Below, piece by piece: positions 1,782 through 11,448 of a stretch of 11,623 nt of DNA (position 1 is its first letter; every line of letters starts with the position of its first letter). The stretch lies in the NCBI GenBank assembly GCA_037917625.1, contig JAVCBY010000046.1, positions 1 through 11,623 of the forward strand, read 5' to 3'. The position numbers and the translations under genes were made by a program. Below the pieces are notes generated by a model that did no database searches, was not told where the DNA came from, and worked only from the letters and a program-made list of their open reading frames with translations. Source of the DNA: Thermoproteota archaeon. GTDB taxonomy: Archaea; Korarchaeota; Korarchaeia; Korarchaeales; Korarchaeaceae.

Positions 1782-1805
1782 CTTTCAATCCTCTTTTCAT
1801 TGAGA
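1782..1805 (-). CRISPR. isolated CRISPR repeat copy
   Basis: ctttcaatcctcttttcattgaga is identical to 24 of 25 nt of the repeats at 2563 and 2639 (base 1806 is t instead of c). Confidence 0.9.
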
Positions 1806-1839
1806 TGCAGCACTGACAACTCGAGAGATTGAGTTTGTG

Positions 1840-1864
1840 AGTAAACTTTATTAGGGTTATCCTA
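1840..1864 (+). promoter_or_regulatory. vapBC promoter (BRE/TATA) with possible operator palindrome
   Basis: agtaaa-c-TTTATTA (1840-1853) about 27 nt upstream of GTG 1878; imperfect palindrome tagggttatccta at 1852-1864. Confidence 0.5.
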
Positions 1865-1877
1865 CCTGGAGTTTATC

Positions 1878-2105
1878 GTGGGGGATTACGTAGTCATTGC
1901 AGCGAAGATCCCGAGGAAGCTCAAGGATCTGATGGATGAGCTGGGGGTAAAGCCGGGTCCAGTTATCAGGAAAGCTCTGGAGGAGGAAGTCAGGAGAAGA
2001 ACTCTAGAAAAGCTGGAGGAAAGGGCGAGAAAGCTCCTTGAAAAACTGCCTGAAATCTCGGATGAGGAGATAGCTAGGCTGATCAGGGAGGATAGGGGGA
2101 GATGA
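1878..2105 (+). CDS. vapB: VapB-type antitoxin, ribbon-helix-helix DNA-binding
   Basis: 75 aa: 'YVVIAAKIPRKLKDLMDELGV..VIRKALEEEVRRR' RHH pattern and 'EEIARLIREDR' tail typical of archaeal VapB; directly upstream of a PIN gene. Confidence 0.85.
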   Translation: MGDYVVIAAKIPRKLKDLMDELGVKPGPVIRKALEEEVRRRTLEKLEERARKLLEKLPEISDEEIARLIREDRGR

Positions 2106-2498
2106 GATATATTTGATTCATCAGCTGTCGTGAACCTCGTGAAGAAGGGGAAGCTGTCAGCATTCATTGAGGGATGCACACTCGACTTAGCATTATATGA
2201 GTCCCTCAATGCGCTCTGGAAGGAGCACTTCCTCCTGAAAAAGCTGAGCGAGGATGTCTTTAGGGAGTACATCGACATAATCTCGGAACTCTTCAGGGCA
2301 ATAGAGGTCAAGAGCGTGATGGAACTCGAGGACAAAGTCTTGGAAAATGCTGTAAAGTACGGTATCACTGTATATGACTCATCTTACCTAACTTATGCGA
2401 TGGAGAATGGTCTTATGCTCGTCACGGACGATGAAAAGCTCTCTAGCAAAGCGAGGGATAAAGTAAATGTGATATCCACTTCCGAGATTCGATCGTGA
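2102..2498 (+). pseudogene. vapC: VapC PIN-domain toxin with 5' frameshift
   Basis: PIN motifs IFDSSAVVNL (2109-2138), LALYESLNALWK, ITVYDSSYL, LVTDD. The coupled ATG at 2102 (ATGA overlap with the vapB stop) reads MRYI-stop and is out of frame with the body; the tracked start at 2130 omits the first catalytic Asp. Confidence 0.8.
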
Positions 2499-2562
2499 AG
2501 GTTCCCGAATTCGGAGGTTTCGCGATAAGAGACGTTTCATTCCCTCTATCACTCTCTCTACC

Positions 2563-2663
2563 CTTTCAATCCTCTTTTCATTGAGACCCTCGTTATTCAG
2601 CTACAAACAGGCCCGCATTTGCGAGATTTCACCCCAAGCTTTCAATCCTCTTTTCATTGAGAC
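2563..2663 (-). CRISPR. CRISPR mini-array: two identical 25-bp repeats and one 51-bp spacer
   Basis: ctttcaatcctcttttcattgagac at 2563-2587 and 2639-2663. The minus strand reads GTCTCAATGAAAAGAGGATTGAAAG with the canonical ATTGAAAG handle. Spacer at 2588-2638. Confidence 0.9.
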
Positions 2664-2767
2664 GTTAAAGAGAGAATATGATGAAATAAGCACCAAAATA
2701 GGGATTTTAAGAGGATCTACTTCTACTAATTAATGTATGAAACTTACAAGGATTGGAATTTCTTCTA
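2664..2767 (-). promoter_or_regulatory. putative CRISPR leader
   Basis: AT-rich ~100-bp stretch between the last operon stop codon (2768) and the first repeat; TTAAAA on the minus strand at 2710-2705. Confidence 0.55.
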
Positions 2768-3028
2768 TTACTTGGCCTCACTCGAGCTGATTCCATTTTG
2801 TATTCTACTAATTATAAAGAACTCGGGTATATATATGTACATTTTTTCCACTATTTTATTTATTTCATTTGCAAAGCTATCCTCGTTTTCGGCAATTTGT
2901 TTCATCTTATTATGCAGTTCTGAGATATCCTCTGCTAGAGATCCCAGATATCCTTGAATCTCCTCCACACTATCCAGAAGATCATCTAGAACCTTAAGAG
3001 AATCGTGTTCCTCTAGATCAGTCCTCAA
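2768..3028 (-). CDS. acidic coiled-coil ORF, probably the frameshifted C-terminus of the 3037-4632 gene
   Basis: TTG start without an obvious RBS; its frame stays open 22 codons further upstream (NIFYSGEYIQDYAQHLENLVDT), overlapping the end of the upstream ORF. Confidence 0.6.
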   Translation of the reverse strand: MRTDLEEHDSLKVLDDLLDSVEEIQGYLGSLAEDISELHNKMKQIAENEDSFANEINKIVEKMYIYIPEFFIISRIQNGISSSEAK

Positions 3029-3036
3029 GGTATCTA

Positions 3037-4632
3037 CTAAATTCTCGAGATGTTGAGCATAATCTTGGATGTACTCTCCAGAATAGAAGATATTTTATTT
3101 ATTGAATAGCTCAATTTAACGGATATGCCATAATAGCATCTCAAGTAACGTATAAATTTTTCATTTAATATTTCTTCACTTATCATAATAGGAATAACGG
3201 GTAGAATTCCATGCGTTATAGAAAGACTATTCCTCAAATTTTTTAAATGATATTCTAAATTTCCAGATTTTATTTTATAAAATTTATTCTTTTCATCATT
3301 AAGACTCAATTCGAAGTAGTGGATCTTTTTTATTAATTCATTCAAAGTGTCCAGCCTTCCTGGCTTATGCAATTTGGGTAAGAACTCGTTGGATAAGAAC
3401 TCCCTCTTTTCTTTCTCCTTTTCTTTCTCATATTTATCCGAGGGGATCGCGAGGAAGTAGGGAAGCGTATTCATAATCCTATCTACTTGATCCATCATAT
3501 TGACGAAATTATAAAGATTCGTAAAGAAATATACCATATCTGCTCTCATTAGATAATGAAATATACTTACAATGAAGTGAAGGTAAGGAATTATAACACT
3601 ATTTGCATATATGAGACTCGCTATACCGGAGTTCCTCACAAGATGGGTGAAGAATTTTACATCAAAATCATCGCCTGCCTCTCCCCTGTCTGAGCTTTTA
3701 CTCACTCTCAATTCCCCTAAACTCTTGAATAAAACCTCCATTTTCGTTATCTTATCTACATATTTTCCATAAATCTCAATTATTGAGGAGAACACTTCTC
3801 TCAGATTCTTAATATTAGTATAGCTTGGCATTACGCTTTGGACGAGATCTAGATGCGGTAGTAGGAGTTTATTCACTATGAGCTCTATTGTATTCATTAT
3901 GGATTCTTCTATTTTATGGGTCGCTTGTTCACTTCTATACACACTTTGTATATAAATTGTTAACTGATTTAAGATTAATGAGTTTATTATATTATAAAAC
4001 CGATAAACAAGCTCCTTGGTGTCATTATTTTGAGGAAAGATCGATAATATATCTAAGGTTATATTTATTAGTGATTCTATTAGTGACTCTACATAATTCT
4101 CCCTATTTGAATGATCTGGAAGCTCTATTTTCTGTAATATCGATCCTCCTGTCTGTTCCTCTTTAATCGCGTGAAAATACTGGATATTTGATAAGATACT
4201 GTCTTCTGATAGGACGCCTTCTAATATTGTTTGAACTTCCTCTCTCATATCGATGGAGAGTTTATCATGTAGGAATATATGGAGAGCGGCTCTAATGAGA
4301 GGTCCCTTCAAGTCCCTCAGGGGTCCCTTCTCTAGATGCTTTACGAGATATTTGAACTCGCGGTCGATGATATCTATAAATCTAACTGAATTTTCATCTG
4401 AGATTGTAGGAAGAAATAGAATCCCGATGGATTTTATACCCTTTAACTCCGCACTACTCTTCACTTCCTCTAAGCTCTTCTCCTTAGGTATCCCTCCTTC
4501 TATCTCGTAAAACTTTCCATATATGAAGAAGAGTTTTTTATCATATATCGGATCCATGAACTTGAGTTTGGGTAGTTTTAAGTCCCCATCCTCCCAAAAC
4601 AGTGATGAGACCAGTAGTATATCCGGGATCAA
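3037..4632 (-). CDS. uncharacterised AT-rich, largely alpha-helical protein appended to the type III operon
   Basis: 531-aa ORF whose TTG start lies 1 nt after the upstream stop, preceded by AGGGGA; no motif recognised. Confidence 0.8.
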   Translation of the reverse strand: MIPDILLVSSLFWEDGDLKLPKLKFMDPIYDKKLFFIYGKFYEIEGGIPKEKSLEEVKSSAELKGIKSIGILFLPTISDENSVRFIDIIDREFKYLVKHLEKGPLRDLKGPLIRAALHIFLHDKLSIDMREEVQTILEGVLSEDSILSNIQYFHAIKEEQTGGSILQKIELPDHSNRENYVESLIESLINITLDILSIFPQNNDTKELVYRFYNIINSLILNQLTIYIQSVYRSEQATHKIEESIMNTIELIVNKLLLPHLDLVQSVMPSYTNIKNLREVFSSIIEIYGKYVDKITKMEVLFKSLGELRVSKSSDRGEAGDDFDVKFFTHLVRNSGIASLIYANSVIIPYLHFIVSIFHYLMRADMVYFFTNLYNFVNMMDQVDRIMNTLPYFLAIPSDKYEKEKEKEKREFLSNEFLPKLHKPGRLDTLNELIKKIHYFELSLNDEKNKFYKIKSGNLEYHLKNLRNSLSITHGILPVIPIMISEEILNEKFIRYLRCYYGISVKLSYSINKISSILESTSKIMLNISRI

Positions 4633-4633
4633 C

Positions 4634-5005
4634 TTATCCCCTTACCAAGTCAATCAGTTGATTTATTTCCCACTTTCCTAACTTCTTCAACTGAAAGTAC
4701 ACACTGCATAGAGATTTGAGATCCCTATCCATACTCATTAATATATCGAGGATCTTTGATGAGATTATCTCTGCATCAGGCAGAGAGAATTGAATTCTCT
4801 TACTCGAGAACTTCGATGCTATCTCGCTTATTATTCCCTTTATGAAAATATCTCTATCCTTAGATGGATCGTATCCTTTCCTCAATATGTACTCATACTT
4901 TCTCAGTAGCTTGAAGCTCAAGTCATATGCATCACGGTCCCCGCTTAACTGCTTCAAGGAATTGCTCATCCTTATGAGCTGGACGAGATCCTCGCATCTA
5001 ACCAT
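4634..5005 (-). CDS. small alpha-helical type III-associated protein (123 aa; possible second small subunit)
   Basis: GGAGGTG precedes ATG 5005 (MVRCEDLVQ...), which overlaps the upstream stop, making this a better start than 5050. Helical and basic, no RAMP glycine loop. Confidence 0.7.
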   Translation of the reverse strand: MVRCEDLVQLIRMSNSLKQLSGDRDAYDLSFKLLRKYEYILRKGYDPSKDRDIFIKGIISEIASKFSSKRIQFSLPDAEIISSKILDILMSMDRDLKSLCSVYFQLKKLGKWEINQLIDLVRG

Positions 5006-5789
5006 CGCCGAACACCTCCAAAAACCTATCCTTAAGCTCCTGAAAAGCATTATTTACATCTTTCATTATTTCTTCAGTAATTTCTCTCTCCCTTCCGAGG
5101 CTATCGAGAGAGAACACCTTCAAATCTGAGATCCTGATTTTCCCCAGGCCCTTCGGCTTTCCGAATCCTAGAAGCAGTATTTTAGGCTCCTGGGGATTGT
5201 ATCCCATCGCTAAGATAAGTTTCGCTGTTTCCATCTTGAGTGGATTCAGAACGGTGATATCCGTATGCAGAATTGCCCCTTTGGGAATGCATTCTAAGTA
5301 ATACTGCTTTGTCTCCTCTTTAAACTCAATATCACTCCTATATATCTTTATCTTTCCAAATTCCCTCCTCCTTGGCTGCCAACTCGGGCCTACGCTGAGT
5401 ATCTGAGGTTCAATCTGTCCCTCCGGGAATGAATCTGAGAAGAGAGCTCTCGACATATAGCCGGGGAATCCGAAGAGAATTGAAGTTGATGATATGCTTC
5501 CAGTGATCGCTAAATAATAGTGTGAGATCACCCCCTTCAAAGTGGAACCAGGTATTAAGAGCTTATCATCTCTTCTTGCGTTGAGGAATAGGGGAAGTCC
5601 CTCATAAAGCTCAATTTCTCCACTTCCAACATGCACTGGAGATTCCGTCCTGATGGATGCTCGTATCTTATGAGCCTCTCTTAAGCTAGAGTGATGTAGC
5701 TCACGAGTCTCTTTTAAGTAAGAGTATAGGACCTTATTCATAGTGTCTCTCTTCACACCATCCACTTTTATGAATTTGTAAGTGCTCAT
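4998..5789 (-). CDS. cas7: Cas7-group RAMP, Csm5-like distal subunit
   Basis: 'TESPVHVGSG', 'LLIPGSTLKG', G-loop 'LLGFGKPKGLG'; no Csm3-type Asp after GSG. ATG 5789 overlaps the upstream TGA (ATGA), making this a better start than 5840. Confidence 0.85.
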   Translation of the reverse strand: MSTYKFIKVDGVKRDTMNKVLYSYLKETRELHHSSLREAHKIRASIRTESPVHVGSGEIELYEGLPLFLNARRDDKLLIPGSTLKGVISHYYLAITGSISSTSILFGFPGYMSRALFSDSFPEGQIEPQILSVGPSWQPRRREFGKIKIYRSDIEFKEETKQYYLECIPKGAILHTDITVLNPLKMETAKLILAMGYNPQEPKILLLGFGKPKGLGKIRISDLKVFSLDSLGREREITEEIMKDVNNAFQELKDRFLEVFGDG

Positions 5790-6625
5790 TTGCTCAACCC
5801 CTCGATCAGAGAATTTAGACATCCCTCGACATCCTTCCATTTCAACTTAGCCCTCAGGAGAGGCGGTTCTGTCTCAGGTTCGCATTTCAAATTGCATTTT
5901 GAGATAGAATCTAGGATAGAGATCTTATCCGCTTTCCTCAGGTCTAACCTCACGTACTTCCCGTAACTTGGAAAGTTCATCGAGAAAGAGAGCTCTTTCC
6001 TCTCTGAAGGCCATGGGATGATTAGGGAGATATCTGATAAACTCATGGATACATACCCGTATCCCCTGCTCTTAGATCTTCCCAATCTAGCGATTCCAGC
6101 ATTTGCCTGCGTGATCACTGGGGAAAGAAGCGAGAGGAAAGATGGAGGGATGTTCCTGAAGGAGATCTCGAATGAAAAATTGGTCTCTTCCTTTATATAT
6201 TCTTGAGTGAAGGGTCCGTACTTCACAGCCATAGTCGATGGATCTATCTTGATGTGCTCTCTCGTTCCAATAGCATCACTCCTCTCCGTTTGAGCATCAC
6301 TGAAAAAAAGTCTAGAGCCATAGGCTTCCCTCCTCCTGGCAGTTCCAAAGAGATCCTCCAGAAGTCCCGCATATCCCTCTCTATTGAGTGAGGATAGAGT
6401 CCTCTCTATTCCGGATCTGAAGAACCCCTTGAGAGTTGATCCAGGTATCACAGGTCTCCCCCTAGAATCCCTGAGGAGGGGTAAGTCCGGGGAGAGAGGG
6501 TCTATGGGACTCTTACCGGCTCCGATCGTTAGAGGTGATTTCGTCGTTATCTCGCACTTCATACTCCCTGAGATCACGATGGCTTCGAACCCTCTAATTT
6601 CTTTAATCTCATGCATCTCATTCAC
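5786..6625 (-). CDS. csm3: Cas7-group RAMP, Csm3-like
   Basis: 'SPLTIGAG..SPDLPLLRD', 'IPGSTLKGFFRS', 'LFG', 'RLGRSKSRGYG'; the start may be ATG 6616. Confidence 0.88.
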   Translation of the reverse strand: MNEMHEIKEIRGFEAIVISGSMKCEITTKSPLTIGAGKSPIDPLSPDLPLLRDSRGRPVIPGSTLKGFFRSGIERTLSSLNREGYAGLLEDLFGTARRREAYGSRLFFSDAQTERSDAIGTREHIKIDPSTMAVKYGPFTQEYIKEETNFSFEISFRNIPPSFLSLLSPVITQANAGIARLGRSKSRGYGYVSMSLSDISLIIPWPSERKELSFSMNFPSYGKYVRLDLRKADKISILDSISKCNLKCEPETEPPLLRAKLKWKDVEGCLNSLIEGLSK

Positions 6626-7265
6626 CCCCCGAGCATACTCGCTAGATCTACTTCTCTCACCTTCCCCTCGAAAAGATCCTTTAAATCAGCTACCTTTATG
6701 CTGGTCAGCTTTATCTTAACCCTCCCATATCCCCTGCTCCTCCATCCCCCTATGAACTCCTCCAAGCCATTGTGTAGCATTTTCAGTAGTAATATGAATA
6801 AATTGTTCGCATCCGAGAACCGGGGGTCGCTGAGCTCATTGAATATTATAGTGAACTTGAATTTAGTTGGGTTATCCTCATACTCCTTTATCGCTTCCAC
6901 TTTCACAAGAGCTCCCCTCTCAGCGGCGTCCCTCTCCCTATTGATTGAGACATGTGTCCTGGAGAGTGTGTCTACCGTATAAACTGGTGAGGCTTCCGTG
7001 AACTTTATCAGGGAGGAGAGTGATAAATTCCTCCCAGAGTATCCAAAAAGTTTATCAATTATGCAAAGATCCTCTAAACTCTTCGCATCCCTCTTCTCTG
7101 AGATACTATCTACGCAAGGCTCTAATCCGACCCTTATCTTATCTACCTCGATGGAGGAGCTCCCGGAGATCTTATAGGCGAGGAGGAGGCGGGATAGATA
7201 GGATCTGAAGAACCCCTTGAGAGTTGATCCCGGTATCACAGGTCTCCCCCTAGAATCCCTGAGGA
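6413..7265. repeat. 65-bp direct repeat shared by the two csm3 paralogs (6413-6477 and 7201-7265)
   Basis: ggatctgaagaaccccttgagagttgatcc[a/c]ggtatcacaggtctccccctagaatccctgagga; 64/65 identical. Confidence 0.95.
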
Positions 7266-7389
7266 CCGGAAGATCTATCGGGGAGGTCGGATCCCTTCCG
7301 GCGCCGACTCTCAGGGGCTCAAGTAACTCTATTTCACAATCCGCCCATATCCTCCTCCTCAAGGTCAGAAGTCCTCCAACCCCGCTCAT
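6622..7389 (-). CDS. csm3: Cas7-group RAMP, Csm3/Csx7-like backbone RNase
   Basis: 'EPLRVGAG..PIDLPVLRD' (catalytic Asp position), 'IPGSTLKGFFRS', 'C...CIIDKLFG', 'RTHVSINR', 'IGGWRSRGYG'. Confidence 0.9.
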   Translation of the reverse strand: MSGVGGLLTLRRRIWADCEIELLEPLRVGAGRDPTSPIDLPVLRDSRGRPVIPGSTLKGFFRSYLSRLLLAYKISGSSSIEVDKIRVGLEPCVDSISEKRDAKSLEDLCIIDKLFGYSGRNLSLSSLIKFTEASPVYTVDTLSRTHVSINRERDAAERGALVKVEAIKEYEDNPTKFKFTIIFNELSDPRFSDANNLFILLLKMLHNGLEEFIGGWRSRGYGRVKIKLTSIKVADLKDLFEGKVREVDLASMLGG

Positions 7390-7393
7390 AAGA

Positions 7394-7792
7394 TCACCTC
7401 AAAAGATCACTAAGTTCCTTCCTGTAGGCAGTGAAGATGTAGATACATGCTGTCAAGGTATATTTCGCCAGTTTCAGCCTCTCTTTGGTGTCTTTAGAGC
7501 TCTCAATGATCTCTCTTATGAGATTTCTGACGAATTTATATAGATCATCTCCTTTAGATGCTCTTCTAGCTATGAAAATTATTCTGAGCCCGAAGAGATC
7601 CCAATTGTTCTTTTTCTCGCAATCGATCGCTGCATCCAACATATTCCTAAGATTCGTCATTGTGATACTTGATTCCTCTCTCCCTTCTTCCTCCTCCTCT
7701 GTGGGTATACGGACGCCTATAAAGAGCTTCTTCGCTATCTCAACAGCCTTCCTCTGGAGGTTTACCTCCTCTAGGGAACTCGAACTCATCAA
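7394..7792 (-). CDS. cas11: Cas11 small subunit (Csm2-like)
   Basis: ~131 aa helical, 'ITMTNLRNMLD' and 'FGLRIIFIARR'; located between cas5 and cas7; GGAGGTGA RBS. Confidence 0.75.
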   Translation of the reverse strand: MMSSSSLEEVNLQRKAVEIAKKLFIGVRIPTEEEEEGREESSITMTNLRNMLDAAIDCEKKNNWDLFGLRIIFIARRASKGDDLYKFVRNLIREIIESSKDTKERLKLAKYTLTACIYIFTAYRKELSDLLR

Positions 7793-8805
7793 ATATCACC
7801 TCCCGAGCTAAAATGAAGGGGATTATCAAAAAAGATCATATCAAGACCGTGAAACCTCCTCAAAACATCGGAGGGGGGAGTAAGCTCTATTTGAATGATC
7901 TTCTCCGGGTCAAGATCTCCTCTGGGATAGACGAGGACGCTTCCAGGCCCGATCATCCCTCTATAGATATAGAACTTGCCATCTAGCCATGCCTTGAAAT
8001 TTGAAATCCTCAACTTCTCATATATGGGACTTCCAAGCCCTAGGACTCTATCCCTTGAGGAAAATGTCACTACATCAACTGTTAGGAACTTATGATCGGG
8101 TCTCAATCTCCTCATCCTCTCATTCCTATACCCATCAAAGTCCATTGAACTCTCCAATTTGATCTCAGCGAGCCCGAATCCCTTCTTCTTGAAAGCCCCT
8201 ATCCTCACTTCAGTCCCCCCTTTAAGCTCCTCATATAGGGAGTCATCTAGGAAAGCGAGGGAGTGAAACTTTGATCCAGGCCTTATGACTTCCTGCGTGA
8301 AAAGCAGTCCATATCTCTCTCCATCTACCTCTATATAGAAATGAGTCCTACTATCGTAGCTCAATGCGACTTGTGTGAATACTTCCTTCCTCGGAGGTCT
8401 GAAGATCCCTGAGGGGCTTATGAAAACCTCCCCCACCTTTTTGTCCAGCTTCCCCATCTTATCGAGTATATGAGGCCCCTCCTCCATCGCACTAGCAAAA
8501 AGAAGGGCAACAGAGAGGTAATTGCCATCTTCCCTCTTCGCCAATGTGGAGAGCGGTAGAGGAGGTGGTCCGCAAAGCTCAAATGGCTTATCGCTGGGAA
8601 AAGCATGACTCATCCAAAGGTTCAGATCCCCTATGCTACCTCTCGAGCCCCTCTTACCGAAGAAAACTGATGCTATAGCCCCTGAGAGTGTTGATGACGG
8701 TATGTATGATGGGCTAAAATAATGAGCTCCCTTGCTGTATTTATCCCTTATCGCGAGGGGCTCCATGGCCTCTATGCTTAAAAGAGCGACTCTATCGAAT
8801 CCCAT
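7789..8805 (-). CDS. cas5: Cas5-group RAMP (Csm4 / Csx10 C-terminal half-like)
   Basis: 'EAMEPLAI', 'YIPSSTLSGAIA', 'SHAFP', 'LLFTQEVIRPG', internal G-loop 'RIGAFKKKGFG', later 'GPGSV'. Confidence 0.8.
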   Translation of the reverse strand: MGFDRVALLSIEAMEPLAIRDKYSKGAHYFSPSYIPSSTLSGAIASVFFGKRGSRGSIGDLNLWMSHAFPSDKPFELCGPPPLPLSTLAKREDGNYLSVALLFASAMEEGPHILDKMGKLDKKVGEVFISPSGIFRPPRKEVFTQVALSYDSRTHFYIEVDGERYGLLFTQEVIRPGSKFHSLAFLDDSLYEELKGGTEVRIGAFKKKGFGLAEIKLESSMDFDGYRNERMRRLRPDHKFLTVDVVTFSSRDRVLGLGSPIYEKLRISNFKAWLDGKFYIYRGMIGPGSVLVYPRGDLDPEKIIQIELTPPSDVLRRFHGLDMIFFDNPLHFSSGGDI

Positions 8806-9388
8806 CGAATCTCACCTCCTCAACATTCCCGTAGCCTAAACAGGTCCATCCTCCTATTCCCCAGCCTTTGAGGGCATTTAGAGATTTTTTCAGAAGTTCT
8901 ATCTCCTTCTCGTTTAGATCTTCACTCGATTCTATCAGAAAAGTTACTTTGAGCTCCGATGATATCACTTGGGAGAAGAGAAGAGCTCCCTTCTCCACTA
9001 CCCCGAGTTCCCTATCAATTTTAATCCTTGGTCTTGACTCGATGATATCATCCAAGTTTAAATCGCAACTCTCGATCTCAAAGCTGAGCTTCCCCTCCTT
9101 AGAGATAGGAGAAGCTATCTCTCTATCTCTCTCGAAGCACCTACCAGCCACGTCCGTGCCGAAGAGATCCTCATATGCTTGCCTGAGTTCAGGGTAGTTC
9201 TGCACCACTATGCACGCTACTTGTCTGAGCGCTCCTTTGAACTGAGCTGGAGATATAGGGCATGTCACTATTTTGTCCCCAATTTTCTTCTCGTAGATCA
9301 TTATCTCATAATCCTCCTTCCTTATCTCACTCGAGGGTTGAACTGACCTCATACCCCTCAGCTTGATCTCCAGCCTCAATCCCCTCAT
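8792..9388 (-). CDS. cas7: short Cas7-group RAMP (Csx10 N-terminal half-like)
   Basis: 'ISPAQFKGALR', 'EDLFG', 'RPRIKIDRELGVVEKGALLF', G-loop 'GIGGWTCLGYG'; ATGA overlap with the cas10 stop. Confidence 0.82.
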   Translation of the reverse strand: MRGLRLEIKLRGMRSVQPSSEIRKEDYEIMIYEKKIGDKIVTCPISPAQFKGALRQVACIVVQNYPELRQAYEDLFGTDVAGRCFERDREIASPISKEGKLSFEIESCDLNLDDIIESRPRIKIDRELGVVEKGALLFSQVISSELKVTFLIESSEDLNEKEIELLKKSLNALKGWGIGGWTCLGYGNVEEVRFDGIR

Positions 9389-11448
9389 ATCACAACCCCT
9401 ACCTCACAGAGTTTCCTCCTGAGATCCACACCACCGATCTCATTCCTCATCCTGTCCTCTAAGATATCCAGGAGGGAGGCAAGTGCATAAACTGACCTCC
9501 AGAGTTCATCGGATCCTCCTATAGTTAGCTCTTTGAATATTTCCCTGAGGTTCTCGTATATCTCCTCGTTCTCCTCCATACCCCTAGCTATATCGCTCAA
9601 CCACCTGAGCACAGTGAGATCGGGATGCAACTTTCCGGGGGAGAGTAGATCATCAAGAACTTCTCTGAGATCAGAGGATCTGACCGCATTATCCCCTCCT
9701 ATAGCGATCTTGAACGCTTTGAGGACCGGGGATTCTCCCCTCCCCTTCCATATCAAGGAATTCCATAGAGATGCTTTCACTTTAGTTTTATCGAAATAGA
9801 ATCTTTCAATCGATTTCCAAGATGCGCTCGACTTTGAATAGAGGAGGGAGGCCTGAACTGTGAATCCATTCCCTCCGATAGACTTCACTACATCCTTCGT
9901 ATACCTGAGCATGCGATGGGAGGTCTCATATAAGTATACGCCAGGTATCTTCGTCCTTCCCACGCTTATTCCCATGCTGATTCCCACTTTCCTATCCTTT
10001 GGGATTATCTCAAGCCCAATAGCGTTTGAAAGTATTCCCTCAACATGAGCGAGACCTTCTATGAATCCGATTATGTGTTCAGCCCTAAGAATGAGCACCA
10101 TATCATCCCCAGCCACGTAGAAGGGAGTTATCGGGAAGAAGAAGTCGTACTTCCTCGGTTCAGTTGTCCCTCTCATTTCTAACAATTTTTCCTCGATCTT
10201 CAAGGAGTTCTTTGCCCCCTCAATTAACCCCTCTTCCATCAGCGCGCTGAAGAGAATGGATAGGGAGAGGAAGTCCTTTATGCTCTTAGACTCGCCCTTA
10301 AGACTACCGAAGCCATCCCCATCCGCACTTACCATAGCGATTAGTGCATTTGAGGACTCAGAATAATCATAATCCTCCAGATCGGATATGAACCCGATTT
10401 TAAGTCCATGGAAGTACTTCCTCAATCTATCGAGTATAGTGAAGGATGAGGCTTCCCTAACGGCTTCCGATACTCTCTCATTCCACCCTTCAGTGTTTCC
10501 ATTCAGGATATTCATGAGGATATGCCCGTATATAGAGAGGACGAGGCAGCTCTGGCATATCTTACCTCCACCCCTCTCCACTAAGCTTTTCCTCAGTTCT
10601 TCCGCCTTCCCGTCTTTAGCGAAGGACCTCAGCAATTTATCGATGGACCGCTCATCTAAGCACCGATCGGTCCTGCAACTCCTACAGATATCACTTGGAT
10701 CCAGTTCCACTGAATCCTCTAAATGTTCTATAACTTTAGCGGAGGCTAGAGCTAGTCTATATGACGATCCAAAGTTATTTATCAGATCTCTAGCTCTAAG
10801 CTTCGGGGGGCTTCTACCGTTCCCCTTAAGAACAATGACATCCGCGAGAGGTATTCCCTTTAAGTGCTCAATTATCCCCTCCTCTAACTCCCTTGAGAAA
10901 TCCGAAGAGGAGATAAATACGAGCTCTCCAGCTTCCTTTGTCAATATGAATTCCTCTCCCAGCCTCTCAGCCACATATTTTGATGCATACCTCGGGATTA
11001 TATCAATTAGAAGACTAGCACCTCTCATCTCCTTGAAAGCACCATTCCTCCTTATTAGCTCCTTGATGGAACCTACCTCTAAAAGCTGTATCGTGACTTC
11101 CCAGTTACCCTCCTCTATGGAATCTAAGAAACTCTTGGCCTCTTTGTAGTAATCTGTATCCCCTATCTTCTCAGCTAATTTGCTGAATCCCTCTTTCTCA
11201 GCGACAGCCTTTAATGAGGAGAGCCTTGCCTCCCTCCAATGATCGCTCCCTGGATCTTTTGAGAGAGATAACGTTAGAAGAGGAGGATAAGTGCGTATCC
11301 TTAAGAGGCTATGGAATAACTCCTTTTCTATCCCCTCTATTAAGAATTTCTTGAGCTTTTTGTTTACTTCCTCGAAGAAGTTTAAGCCCGAATTATAAAT
11401 GGCTATGAGCTCCTCCTCCACTTGCTTCCTTGCATCTCTAATCATCAA
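9385..11448 (-). CDS. cas10: Cas10 large subunit of a type III system, lacking HD nuclease domain
   Basis: Palm1 'VGSIKELIRR..KEMRGASLLID', Zn finger CRSC...CQSC, Palm2 'VSADGDGFG' and 'FYVAGDDMVL', 'ISMGI'; start TTG 11448 or ATG 11445. Confidence 0.93.
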   Translation of the reverse strand: MMIRDARKQVEEELIAIYNSGLNFFEEVNKKLKKFLIEGIEKELFHSLLRIRTYPPLLTLSLSKDPGSDHWREARLSSLKAVAEKEGFSKLAEKIGDTDYYKEAKSFLDSIEEGNWEVTIQLLEVGSIKELIRRNGAFKEMRGASLLIDIIPRYASKYVAERLGEEFILTKEAGELVFISSSDFSRELEEGIIEHLKGIPLADVIVLKGNGRSPPKLRARDLINNFGSSYRLALASAKVIEHLEDSVELDPSDICRSCRTDRCLDERSIDKLLRSFAKDGKAEELRKSLVERGGGKICQSCLVLSIYGHILMNILNGNTEGWNERVSEAVREASSFTILDRLRKYFHGLKIGFISDLEDYDYSESSNALIAMVSADGDGFGSLKGESKSIKDFLSLSILFSALMEEGLIEGAKNSLKIEEKLLEMRGTTEPRKYDFFFPITPFYVAGDDMVLILRAEHIIGFIEGLAHVEGILSNAIGLEIIPKDRKVGISMGISVGRTKIPGVYLYETSHRMLRYTKDVVKSIGGNGFTVQASLLYSKSSASWKSIERFYFDKTKVKASLWNSLIWKGRGESPVLKAFKIAIGGDNAVRSSDLREVLDDLLSPGKLHPDLTVLRWLSDIARGMEENEEIYENLREIFKELTIGGSDELWRSVYALASLLDILEDRMRNEIGGVDLRRKLCEVGVVI

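Follow-up and report, generated by a model that had tools for sequence, protein, structure and literature searches.

The stretch of DNA considered here (the window) is the whole of contig C49, 11,623 bp, from a metagenome-assembled archaeal genome (1.22 Mb in 116 contigs, 84% complete), and it carries a toxin-antitoxin (TA) operon of the vapBC type lying between two repeats of a small CRISPR array, downstream of a type III-D-like cas cassette. Exact copies of the 24-mer CTTTCAATCCTCTTTTCATTGAGA are found on the + strand at 1782-1805 (R1), 2563-2586 (R2) and 2639-2662 (R3), and a search of the window at up to 3 mismatches returned these 3 matches, against 0 in 200 shuffles, with no further degenerate repeat better than 8 mismatches in 24. 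The gaps between them are 757 and 52 nucleotides (nt) long and the longer is occupied by vapBC on the + strand, so that an earlier note on this DNA, which had described co-oriented repeats bracketing a single antisense vapBC unit, read the anatomy correctly.

The 757-nt insert (1806-2562, + strand; G+C content about 46%, compared with 47.5% for the genome) comprises a promoter, vapB, vapC and 64 nt of 3' flank. A box resembling a TATA element and B recognition element, AAACTTTATTAGGG, is situated on the + strand at 1843-1856, 22-35 nt before the vapB start, and is probably the promoter of a leaderless mRNA; it is conserved with the closest cassette (L049), to which nucleotide homology of 73.5% spans 1839-2413 including this motif, and GTAAAC-rich motifs related to the box occur in 4 other homologues. 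A scan for promoters and terminators of bacterial type yielded nothing useful, the models being bacterial and the host archaeal. The vapB gene (1878-2105, + strand) has a GTG start and specifies a 75-residue antitoxin that matches NCBIfam NF050799, the Sulfolobales VapB antitoxin, with an E value of 2.6e-12 and 47 bits, under the 60-bit cut-off, and it shows 68-77% amino acid identity with homologues in 5 relatives. The vapC gene for the PIN toxin (2102-2498, + strand) has an ATG at 2102 that overlaps the vapB stop (ATGA), with the PIN frame extending from 2106 to 2498. Taken singly, the PIN sequence of the window falls below the Pfam cut-off (20.8 vs 23.6 bits); a profile of 6 sequences matched the solved Pyrobaculum PIN proteins PAE2754 (E 1e-15) and PAE0151 (E 2e-13), and the four acidic residues expected of such a domain (D4, E40, D91 and D108/D109) are invariant in the 6 aligned sequences. 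As in VapBC systems generally, the small antitoxin gene lies directly upstream of the PIN frame and shares its promoter, and the insert is, as far as sequence can tell, a self-contained unit with its own conserved promoter and a predicted toxin-antitoxin pair. No match to the insert was found among plasmid records.

The operon had also been described as complete, and this holds for the promoter, vapB and the PIN frame but not for vapC, which in the window lacks an in-frame start and is 2 nt short. There is no start codon in the PIN frame before the first catalytic Asp, the vapB stop and the PIN frame share a frame, and the ATG at 2102 reads MRYI-stop, and in 5 of 5 aligned homologues the protein opens with M-x-[YF]-[LV]-F-D, at a point overlapping the vapB stop or immediately beyond it. 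The window was compared with contigs from two other hot-spring metagenome runs, X1 and X2, and in both an additional AT is present behind 2106 (11.6 of 11.6 depth in X1 and 18.8 of 18.8 in X2), which restores MRYIFD and leaves the vapC frame intact. The shortfall reflects either a 2-nt slippage mutation or an error in the consensus. Pointing the same way is a further break of frame, where comparison with related loci reveals a deletion of 1 nt near 3079/3080, and both indels are at low-complexity sites.

In its - strand form, (G/A)TCTCAATGAAAAGAGGATTGAAAG, the repeat ends in ATTGAAAG, which we take to be the 8-nt CRISPR RNA (crRNA) handle typical of crenarchaeal-type repeats. An 8-nt tag is mentioned in PMC4390879. 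The crRNA sense is the - strand and the leader-side repeat is R3, which reads GTCTCAATGAAAAGAGGATTGAAAG in that sense and is 25 nt long if position 2663 is counted. R2, also on the - strand, has the 3' handle with which any RNA antisense to the 3' flank of vapC would begin. R1, the leader-distal copy, is identical over 24 nt with A rather than G as its 25th base. Beyond R3 is a leader-like AT-rich region of 105 nt (2663-2767, - strand) with TTAAAAT about 47 nt before the repeat. It is approximately 93% identical in two related metagenome loci, L087 and L089, where conservation extends through the leader into the repeat as far as its 21st nt, and it is unlike the leader of the large array on contig C40 of the same genome. 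With 1 mismatch the window repeat is that of the C40 array (60 copies) and of another on contig C97 (26 copies). There are 87 inter-repeat gaps genome-wide; the 85 outside the window measure 37-56 nt, mostly 38-42 nt, and the 757-nt gap is the sole one of more than 56 nt. The window array therefore has the identical repeats, leader and handle of a class 1 CRISPR array but not its uniform spacer length. The suggestion that 757 nt might represent a whole number of repeat-spacer units was dropped, as any length fits to within half a unit. The genome encodes Cas6 (contig C36; TIGR01877, 73 bits, above cut-off) and also Cas1. A second mini-array of two repeats and a 41-nt spacer is present at the start of contig C72 (66-154), beside a housekeeping-type gene; one of its repeats is identical to that of the window and the other differs by a single base, and the 65 nt upstream are unlike either leader.

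The 52-nt segment between R2 and R3 (2587-2638, - strand) is outside the usual 37-42 nt range of spacers in this genome and, to judge from pairwise alignment, is not an ordinary spacer but a diverged duplicate of the DNA following R1 (1733-1771, - strand). When 2588-2634 was aligned with 1733-1771 there were 34 identities in 48 columns, about 70%, and the score of 42, compared with a shuffle mean of 17 (z 7.2), was reached in 0 of 5000 and 0 of 1000 shuffles; this was the only significant pair among 15 flank/spacer comparisons. The structure of the locus on the sense strand is consequently leader, R3 with the 52-nt copy, R2 with vapBC reversed, and R1 with the original of the copy, and this would imply duplication and recombination of repeat-plus-flank units rather than canonical acquisition. 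The best matches of the segment within the window were to 1750-1771 and to 846-862, the latter (15/17, in the opposite sense) being weaker than the alignment just described. No match to it was found in phage records, and neither the segment nor the ends of the insert showed a self-target in the genome beyond 17 nt with 1 mismatch. A candidate degenerate repeat following 1733-1771 was discarded, as 3814 of 20000 random segments equalled or bettered its score. In the X2 contigs a different segment of about 40 nt, some 12 nt shorter than that of the window, occupies the position between R2 and R3; apart from 14 gap letters there, 17 letters in total separate the X2 contig from the window, mostly within 2588-2625.

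The junctions between repeat, vapBC and repeat are real. An X2 contig of 1116 nt (record 10) covers 1220-2332, passing from an aspartic-protease gene across R1 into vapC, and another of 361 nt (record 13) covers 2303-2653, from vapC across R2 to R3, whilst an X1 contig of 732 nt (record 6) covers 2559-3287 and with it R2, the 52-nt segment, R3 and the leader. About 2% of positions in these bridging contigs differ from the window, and for that reason they represent assemblies independent of it. Misassembly at the repeats, which the earlier note had named as one outcome that would overturn its account, is therefore not borne out. Assemblers use k-mers longer than the 24-nt repeat, which also counts against a chimeric join. 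Other X1 contigs end at R1 and R2, and one of depth 4 joins 1779 to 2638. This join might represent an allele lacking the insert, but with just 26 letters on its short side it is too short to trust and was given no weight.

The arrangement is limited to strain-level relatives, as represented by the X1 and X2 contigs. A rare gene adjoining the leader encodes in the window a 531-residue protein that was found in 1 of 36 family genomes, namely the window's own, and with this protein 4 metagenome loci were retrieved at the same site (L087, L088, L089 and L090). The last of these stops inside the rare gene and is not counted, leaving three that are informative in reaching past the rare gene or conserved leader, and vapBC is present in none of the three. 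In both L087 (2945-2965) and L089 (1417-1437) a single repeat truncated to 21 nt is succeeded by unrelated DNA. The L087 sequence ends before a second repeat could appear. In L089 a degenerate repeat (2303-2326) follows 865 nt after the truncated one, and between the two is a frameshifted DUF3782/PD-(D/E)XK gene on the sense strand, with a ribbon-helix-helix (RHH) gene after; a match as good as the degenerate repeat occurs once outside known repeats in the genome of the window (2.4 Mb searched, both strands, two large arrays excluded). L088 has no repeat after the rare gene. An orthologous type III cassette in genome G015 (48-62% amino acid identity) lacks any repeat over the surrounding 20 kb, and a HEPN/MNT (nucleotidyltransferase) pair comes after it. 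The module is thus not conserved with the cas cassette, either in the 3 informative metagenome loci or in G015.

Homologues of vapBC with 60-77% amino acid identity were found in 6 genomes of the same genus, and in none was there a copy of the repeat (at up to 6 mismatches) in the stretch around the cassette, nor were there cas genes or the flanking genes of the window near it in the five loci whose contexts were inspected. When one genome was taken per species the repeat was found, at the same threshold, in 0 of 38 vapBC loci. Two of the 38 (L061 and L063, both at 2543-3472 and from different metagenome-assembled genomes) have the cassette between two identical and complete tRNA-Met genes 853 nt apart, with the vapC frame ending inside the second tRNA copy, an MNT/HEPN pair adjoining, and no integrase within 6.4 kb. 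This is the same pattern, cargo between copies of a duplicated host element, as that of the repeat-bracketed operon, and the comparison indicates that the cassette moves between contexts and can come to be bracketed in this way with no involvement of CRISPR. Solitary repeats with other cargo occur too. In the complete relative G012 (L028; G012:C1:415000-434999) a leader with a solitary repeat (4986-5009) is followed 4.7 kb on by a second, co-oriented, solitary repeat (9747-9770); the genes between them, on the opposite strand, are for an ABC-2 transporter, a PadR protein and a methyltransferase, and an RHH/PIN pair follows the second repeat. In G017 (L031, repeat at 6140-6163) the leader and repeat are syntenic and a different vapBC pair is situated about 550 nt away on the opposite strand. 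The conserved leader and single repeat adjoin an amine-oxidase gene in both G012 and G017.

We consider it probable, on balance, that vapBC is a mobile addiction cassette which entered the array through recombination at a CRISPR repeat and that it does not form part of a circuit under CRISPR control. Of the two possibilities raised in the earlier note, insertion of a gene cassette into the array, or its capture there, agrees with all that was found: the operon has its own conserved promoter, its homologues wander between contexts in which the repeat is absent, and other cargo or none is found behind the same leader. The self-contained type II TA cassette of promoter, VapB and PIN-domain VapC would have entered a repeat of the small leader-associated array and been left between two identical repeat copies. 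The likeliest route would be recombination between the chromosomal repeat and repeat-bearing DNA, for which candidate donors include a further locus flanked by repeats, a mini-array borne on a plasmid or virus, or an element that uses the repeat as an attachment site. Thereafter the cassette may well be retained by addiction, as deletion between the repeats would see the labile antitoxin lost first and leave the stable toxin unopposed, and a side effect of such retention would be to stabilise the neighbouring array and cas region.

Certain consequences at the RNA level can be anticipated from this geometry. A transcript of the array would be antisense to vapBC, and a crRNA beginning with the handle of R2 would be complementary to about 2520-2562, in the 3' flank just past the vapC stop. 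In the other direction, no run of four or more T residues precedes R2 on the + strand, for which reason vapBC RNA probably reads into R2 and carries the anti-tag. Since read-through vapBC RNA would carry the anti-tag, it is expected, from what is known of type III systems (PMC4390879), to be cut without activation of Cas10, and so with no DNA or signalling response. Such cutting by a type III complex would in our view be an incidental consequence of the arrangement and not the reason for it.

A number of observations weigh against an insertion of this kind. No donor, empty site or integrase was found, and as regards the route the ends of the insert have neither terminal inverted repeats nor recognisable halves of a spacer, just scattered matches of 10-19 nt. 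The three repeats are 100% identical, yet the 52-nt segment and its counterpart after R1 are only about 70% alike, which a single recent event does not explain. The arrangement has also been kept in at least 2-3 strains with differing leader-proximal segments, an outcome that a selected function would give as well. Finally, should vapC genuinely lack these 2 nt, the argument from addiction fails for the window strain.

An alternative is that the operon was captured in the course of adaptation, Cas1-Cas2 having integrated an oversize fragment of 757 bp at what was then the leader-proximal repeat and duplicated that repeat, with the present leader-proximal unit added by a later event. The perfect duplication of the repeat on both sides, the presence of Cas1 in the genome, the position of the insert one unit from the leader and the foreign cargo directly after the first repeat in L089 are all consistent with this, and variation of the leader-proximal unit among strains is what polarised acquisition predicts. 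Against it, the acquisition ruler keeps units regular, as it has in 86 of the 87 gaps in this genome (37-56 nt), and the portion of PMC4390879 consulted reports very few irregularities in crenarchaeal arrays. Moreover, the truncation of the repeat in L087 and L089 is not expected from integration, and the tRNA-flanked copies of vapBC demonstrate bracketing by duplications that owed nothing to CRISPR machinery. Capture is, we think, unlikely.

The other possibility raised in the earlier note was a type III analogue of CreTA, in which a guide processed from R2 enables the type III complex to cleave vapBC RNA while leaving Cas10 untriggered, so that the TA pair would depend on the CRISPR effector and would make the cas locus addictive. 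Mechanistically the premise holds, as type III complexes cut antisense CRISPR RNAs and the DNA response is blocked by pairing with the tag (PMC4390879). In type I systems mini-arrays regulate cargo TA genes, and mini-arrays have been reported near 10-14% of type III loci (bioRxiv 10.1101/2023.03.03.530964, in the part available). In the window R2 is turned so that the end with the handle lies towards the 3' flank of vapC, the + strand has no run of four or more T before R2, the genome has both Cas6 and Cas1, the arrangement persists in 2-3 strains, and a bias of decay in the 3'-to-5' direction could lower VapC more than VapB. In its fullest form the idea would have crRNA-guided cleavage preferentially destabilise the 3'-proximal vapC part, with Cas10 kept silent by tag/anti-tag pairing, such that loss or inhibition of the type III complex would tip the VapC:VapB ratio and poison the cell; we regard this reading as very unlikely. 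VapBC is, however, a protein pair with its own protein antitoxin, and cutting of a bicistronic mRNA would be expected to lower the antitoxin too, so that it is not obvious how the toxin would be released if cas were lost. The - strand has runs of T5 within the 757 nt that may stop transcripts of the array, the predicted Cas10 has no HD motif and has AGDD for GGDD, and vapC is frame-broken in the window assembly.

There are general likenesses to CreTA itself, in that a repeat-derived RNA, a toxin and a cas locus are found together and mini-arrays are reported to target cargo TA genes. In CreTA (PMC9458426), however, the toxin is an RNA, the repeats are degenerate, the complementarity to a promoter is partial, DNA is bound by the type I Cascade complex, and the system is conserved across lineages; of these features, none of those examined is seen in the window. 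The repeats are perfect, the vapB promoter is not matched by the 52-nt segment, and there is no conservation beyond strain level, with vapBC in 0 of 3 related loci past the same leader, no repeats in G015, and no repeats in the 38 loci with homologous vapBC. The proposal consequently finds no positive support and is, in our assessment, very unlikely to be correct.

Least credible of all, and extremely improbable, is a chimeric join made by the assembler at short repeats within a metagenome-assembled genome: the window is an entire contig of an 84%-complete genome in 116 pieces, it has two frame-breaking indels at low-complexity sites and X1 contigs break at R1 and R2, but X2 records 10 and 13 cross those same repeats in sequence that is about 2% different and hence separately assembled.

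It is rare for perfect CRISPR repeats to enclose a large insert with genes, and one archaeal precedent was found in the literature searched. In CRISPR locus F of Sulfolobus solfataricus an 899-bp fragment of a pNOB8-like plasmid lies between two repeats (PMC4390879, available portion). As in the window this is a non-spacer fragment of hundreds of bp between regular repeats in a crenarchaeal array, and it is regarded in that paper as a rare structural irregularity; the window differs in that its insert is a promoter-bearing TA operon with no plasmid match, in a three-repeat array beside a type III cassette. The same source describes vapBC pairs interspersed in Sulfolobales cas cassettes, four of them in a type III-D cassette of Acidianus hospitalis, and a role in maintenance of the CRISPR-Cas region has been proposed for them, in agreement with the retention by addiction envisaged here. 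These belong to the same TA family and adjoin the same kind of interference module, but they are situated between cas genes, whereas vapBC in the window is inside the repeat array and on the opposite strand. In Streptococcus pyogenes the temperate phage PhiAP1.1 integrates into CRISPR repeats, which serve as its attachment site (bioRxiv 10.1101/2020.10.09.333658, likewise in part). There too mobile DNA is flanked by the repeat, and aberrant PhiAP1.1 events duplicate or move spacer-repeat units. That system involves a bacterial type II-A array, a whole prophage, an integrase and an att identity of 8 bp, in contrast to the 757-bp cassette, the absence of an integrase from the window and the full 24-nt duplication seen here. 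As to fates of the RNA, antisense CRISPR transcripts in Pyrococcus furiosus are cut by type III-B complexes, with a match to the tag preventing the DNA response (work cited in PMC4390879), and cutting of that type would apply to vapBC read-through RNA; it is a general and incidental effect that needs no gene inside an array.

No published report of a TA operon between CRISPR repeats was found in a full-text literature search. To the precedent the present case adds other cargo between repeats at related loci, vapBC between duplicated tRNA-Met genes and a 52-nt copy of the DNA that follows the array. It suggests that short conserved host sequences, CRISPR repeats among them, are landing or recombination sites for small addiction cassettes that have no transposase. 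This bears on the clustering of TA genes around archaeal CRISPR-Cas loci and on the decay of arrays, which leaves solitary repeats and mini-arrays from which regulatory cr-like RNAs can arise. Were the type III analogue of CreTA to prove true, CRISPR-guarded addiction would extend to RNA-targeting systems, with a protein-TA counterpart of CreTA, but the evidence does not favour it.

The remaining genes of the window are dominated by the type III-D-like effector cassette (4634-11448, - strand), recognised by matches to Pfam, NCBIfam and PADLOC. All its genes are on the - strand: a 687-residue Cas10 (9385-11448; PADLOC Cas10, E 9e-15), a RAMP (8792-9388), a Csx10/Cas5-like protein (7789-8805), a small subunit (7394-7792), two Csx7-like RAMPs (6622-7389 and 5786-6625) and one further RAMP (4998-5840), and a 138-residue protein (4634-5050). 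A large subunit, several RAMPs and a small subunit are thereby combined in one operon, as is characteristic of type III effectors. Further matches were to PADLOC Cas5_IIId (E 1.6e-9), to Pfam RAMPs in 5 proteins and to Csx7 (E 1e-26), and the NCBIfam matches are all under their curated cut-offs. Cas10 lacks an HD motif and shows AGDD at the position normally taken by GGDD. The window has no recognisable effector of the CARF type, whereas in L088 the rare gene is followed by one that is CARF-like.

The rare gene (2768-4632, - strand, 31-38% G+C) would encode about 614 residues and is split into 531 and 86 residues by the 1-nt deletion near 3079/3080. Its 531-residue product belongs to no Pfam, NCBIfam or PADLOC family and gave no usable Atlas match, and just 3 homologues were found among 5.8 billion proteins. 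It follows a type III-D-like cassette in the window and in 4 of the 4 metagenome loci found with it, and may be an undescribed type III accessory gene.

On the far side of the array a gene for an aspartic protease of clan AA (retropepsin-like; 1257-1613) matches TIGR03698 with an E value of 9e-9, below cut-off, and is preceded by about 960 nt (297-1256) with no long reading frame. Neither region showed conservation at the DNA level in 40 relatives, bar a short match in G028. Within the cas cassette a 65-nt direct repeat of 98% identity (6413-6477 and 7201-7265) is shared by the two adjacent Csx7-like RAMP genes, the proteins of which are otherwise only about 30% identical. In G015 and G005 the paralogues show 55-56% identity over this patch. 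It looks like the result of gene conversion or of strong constraint on one patch.

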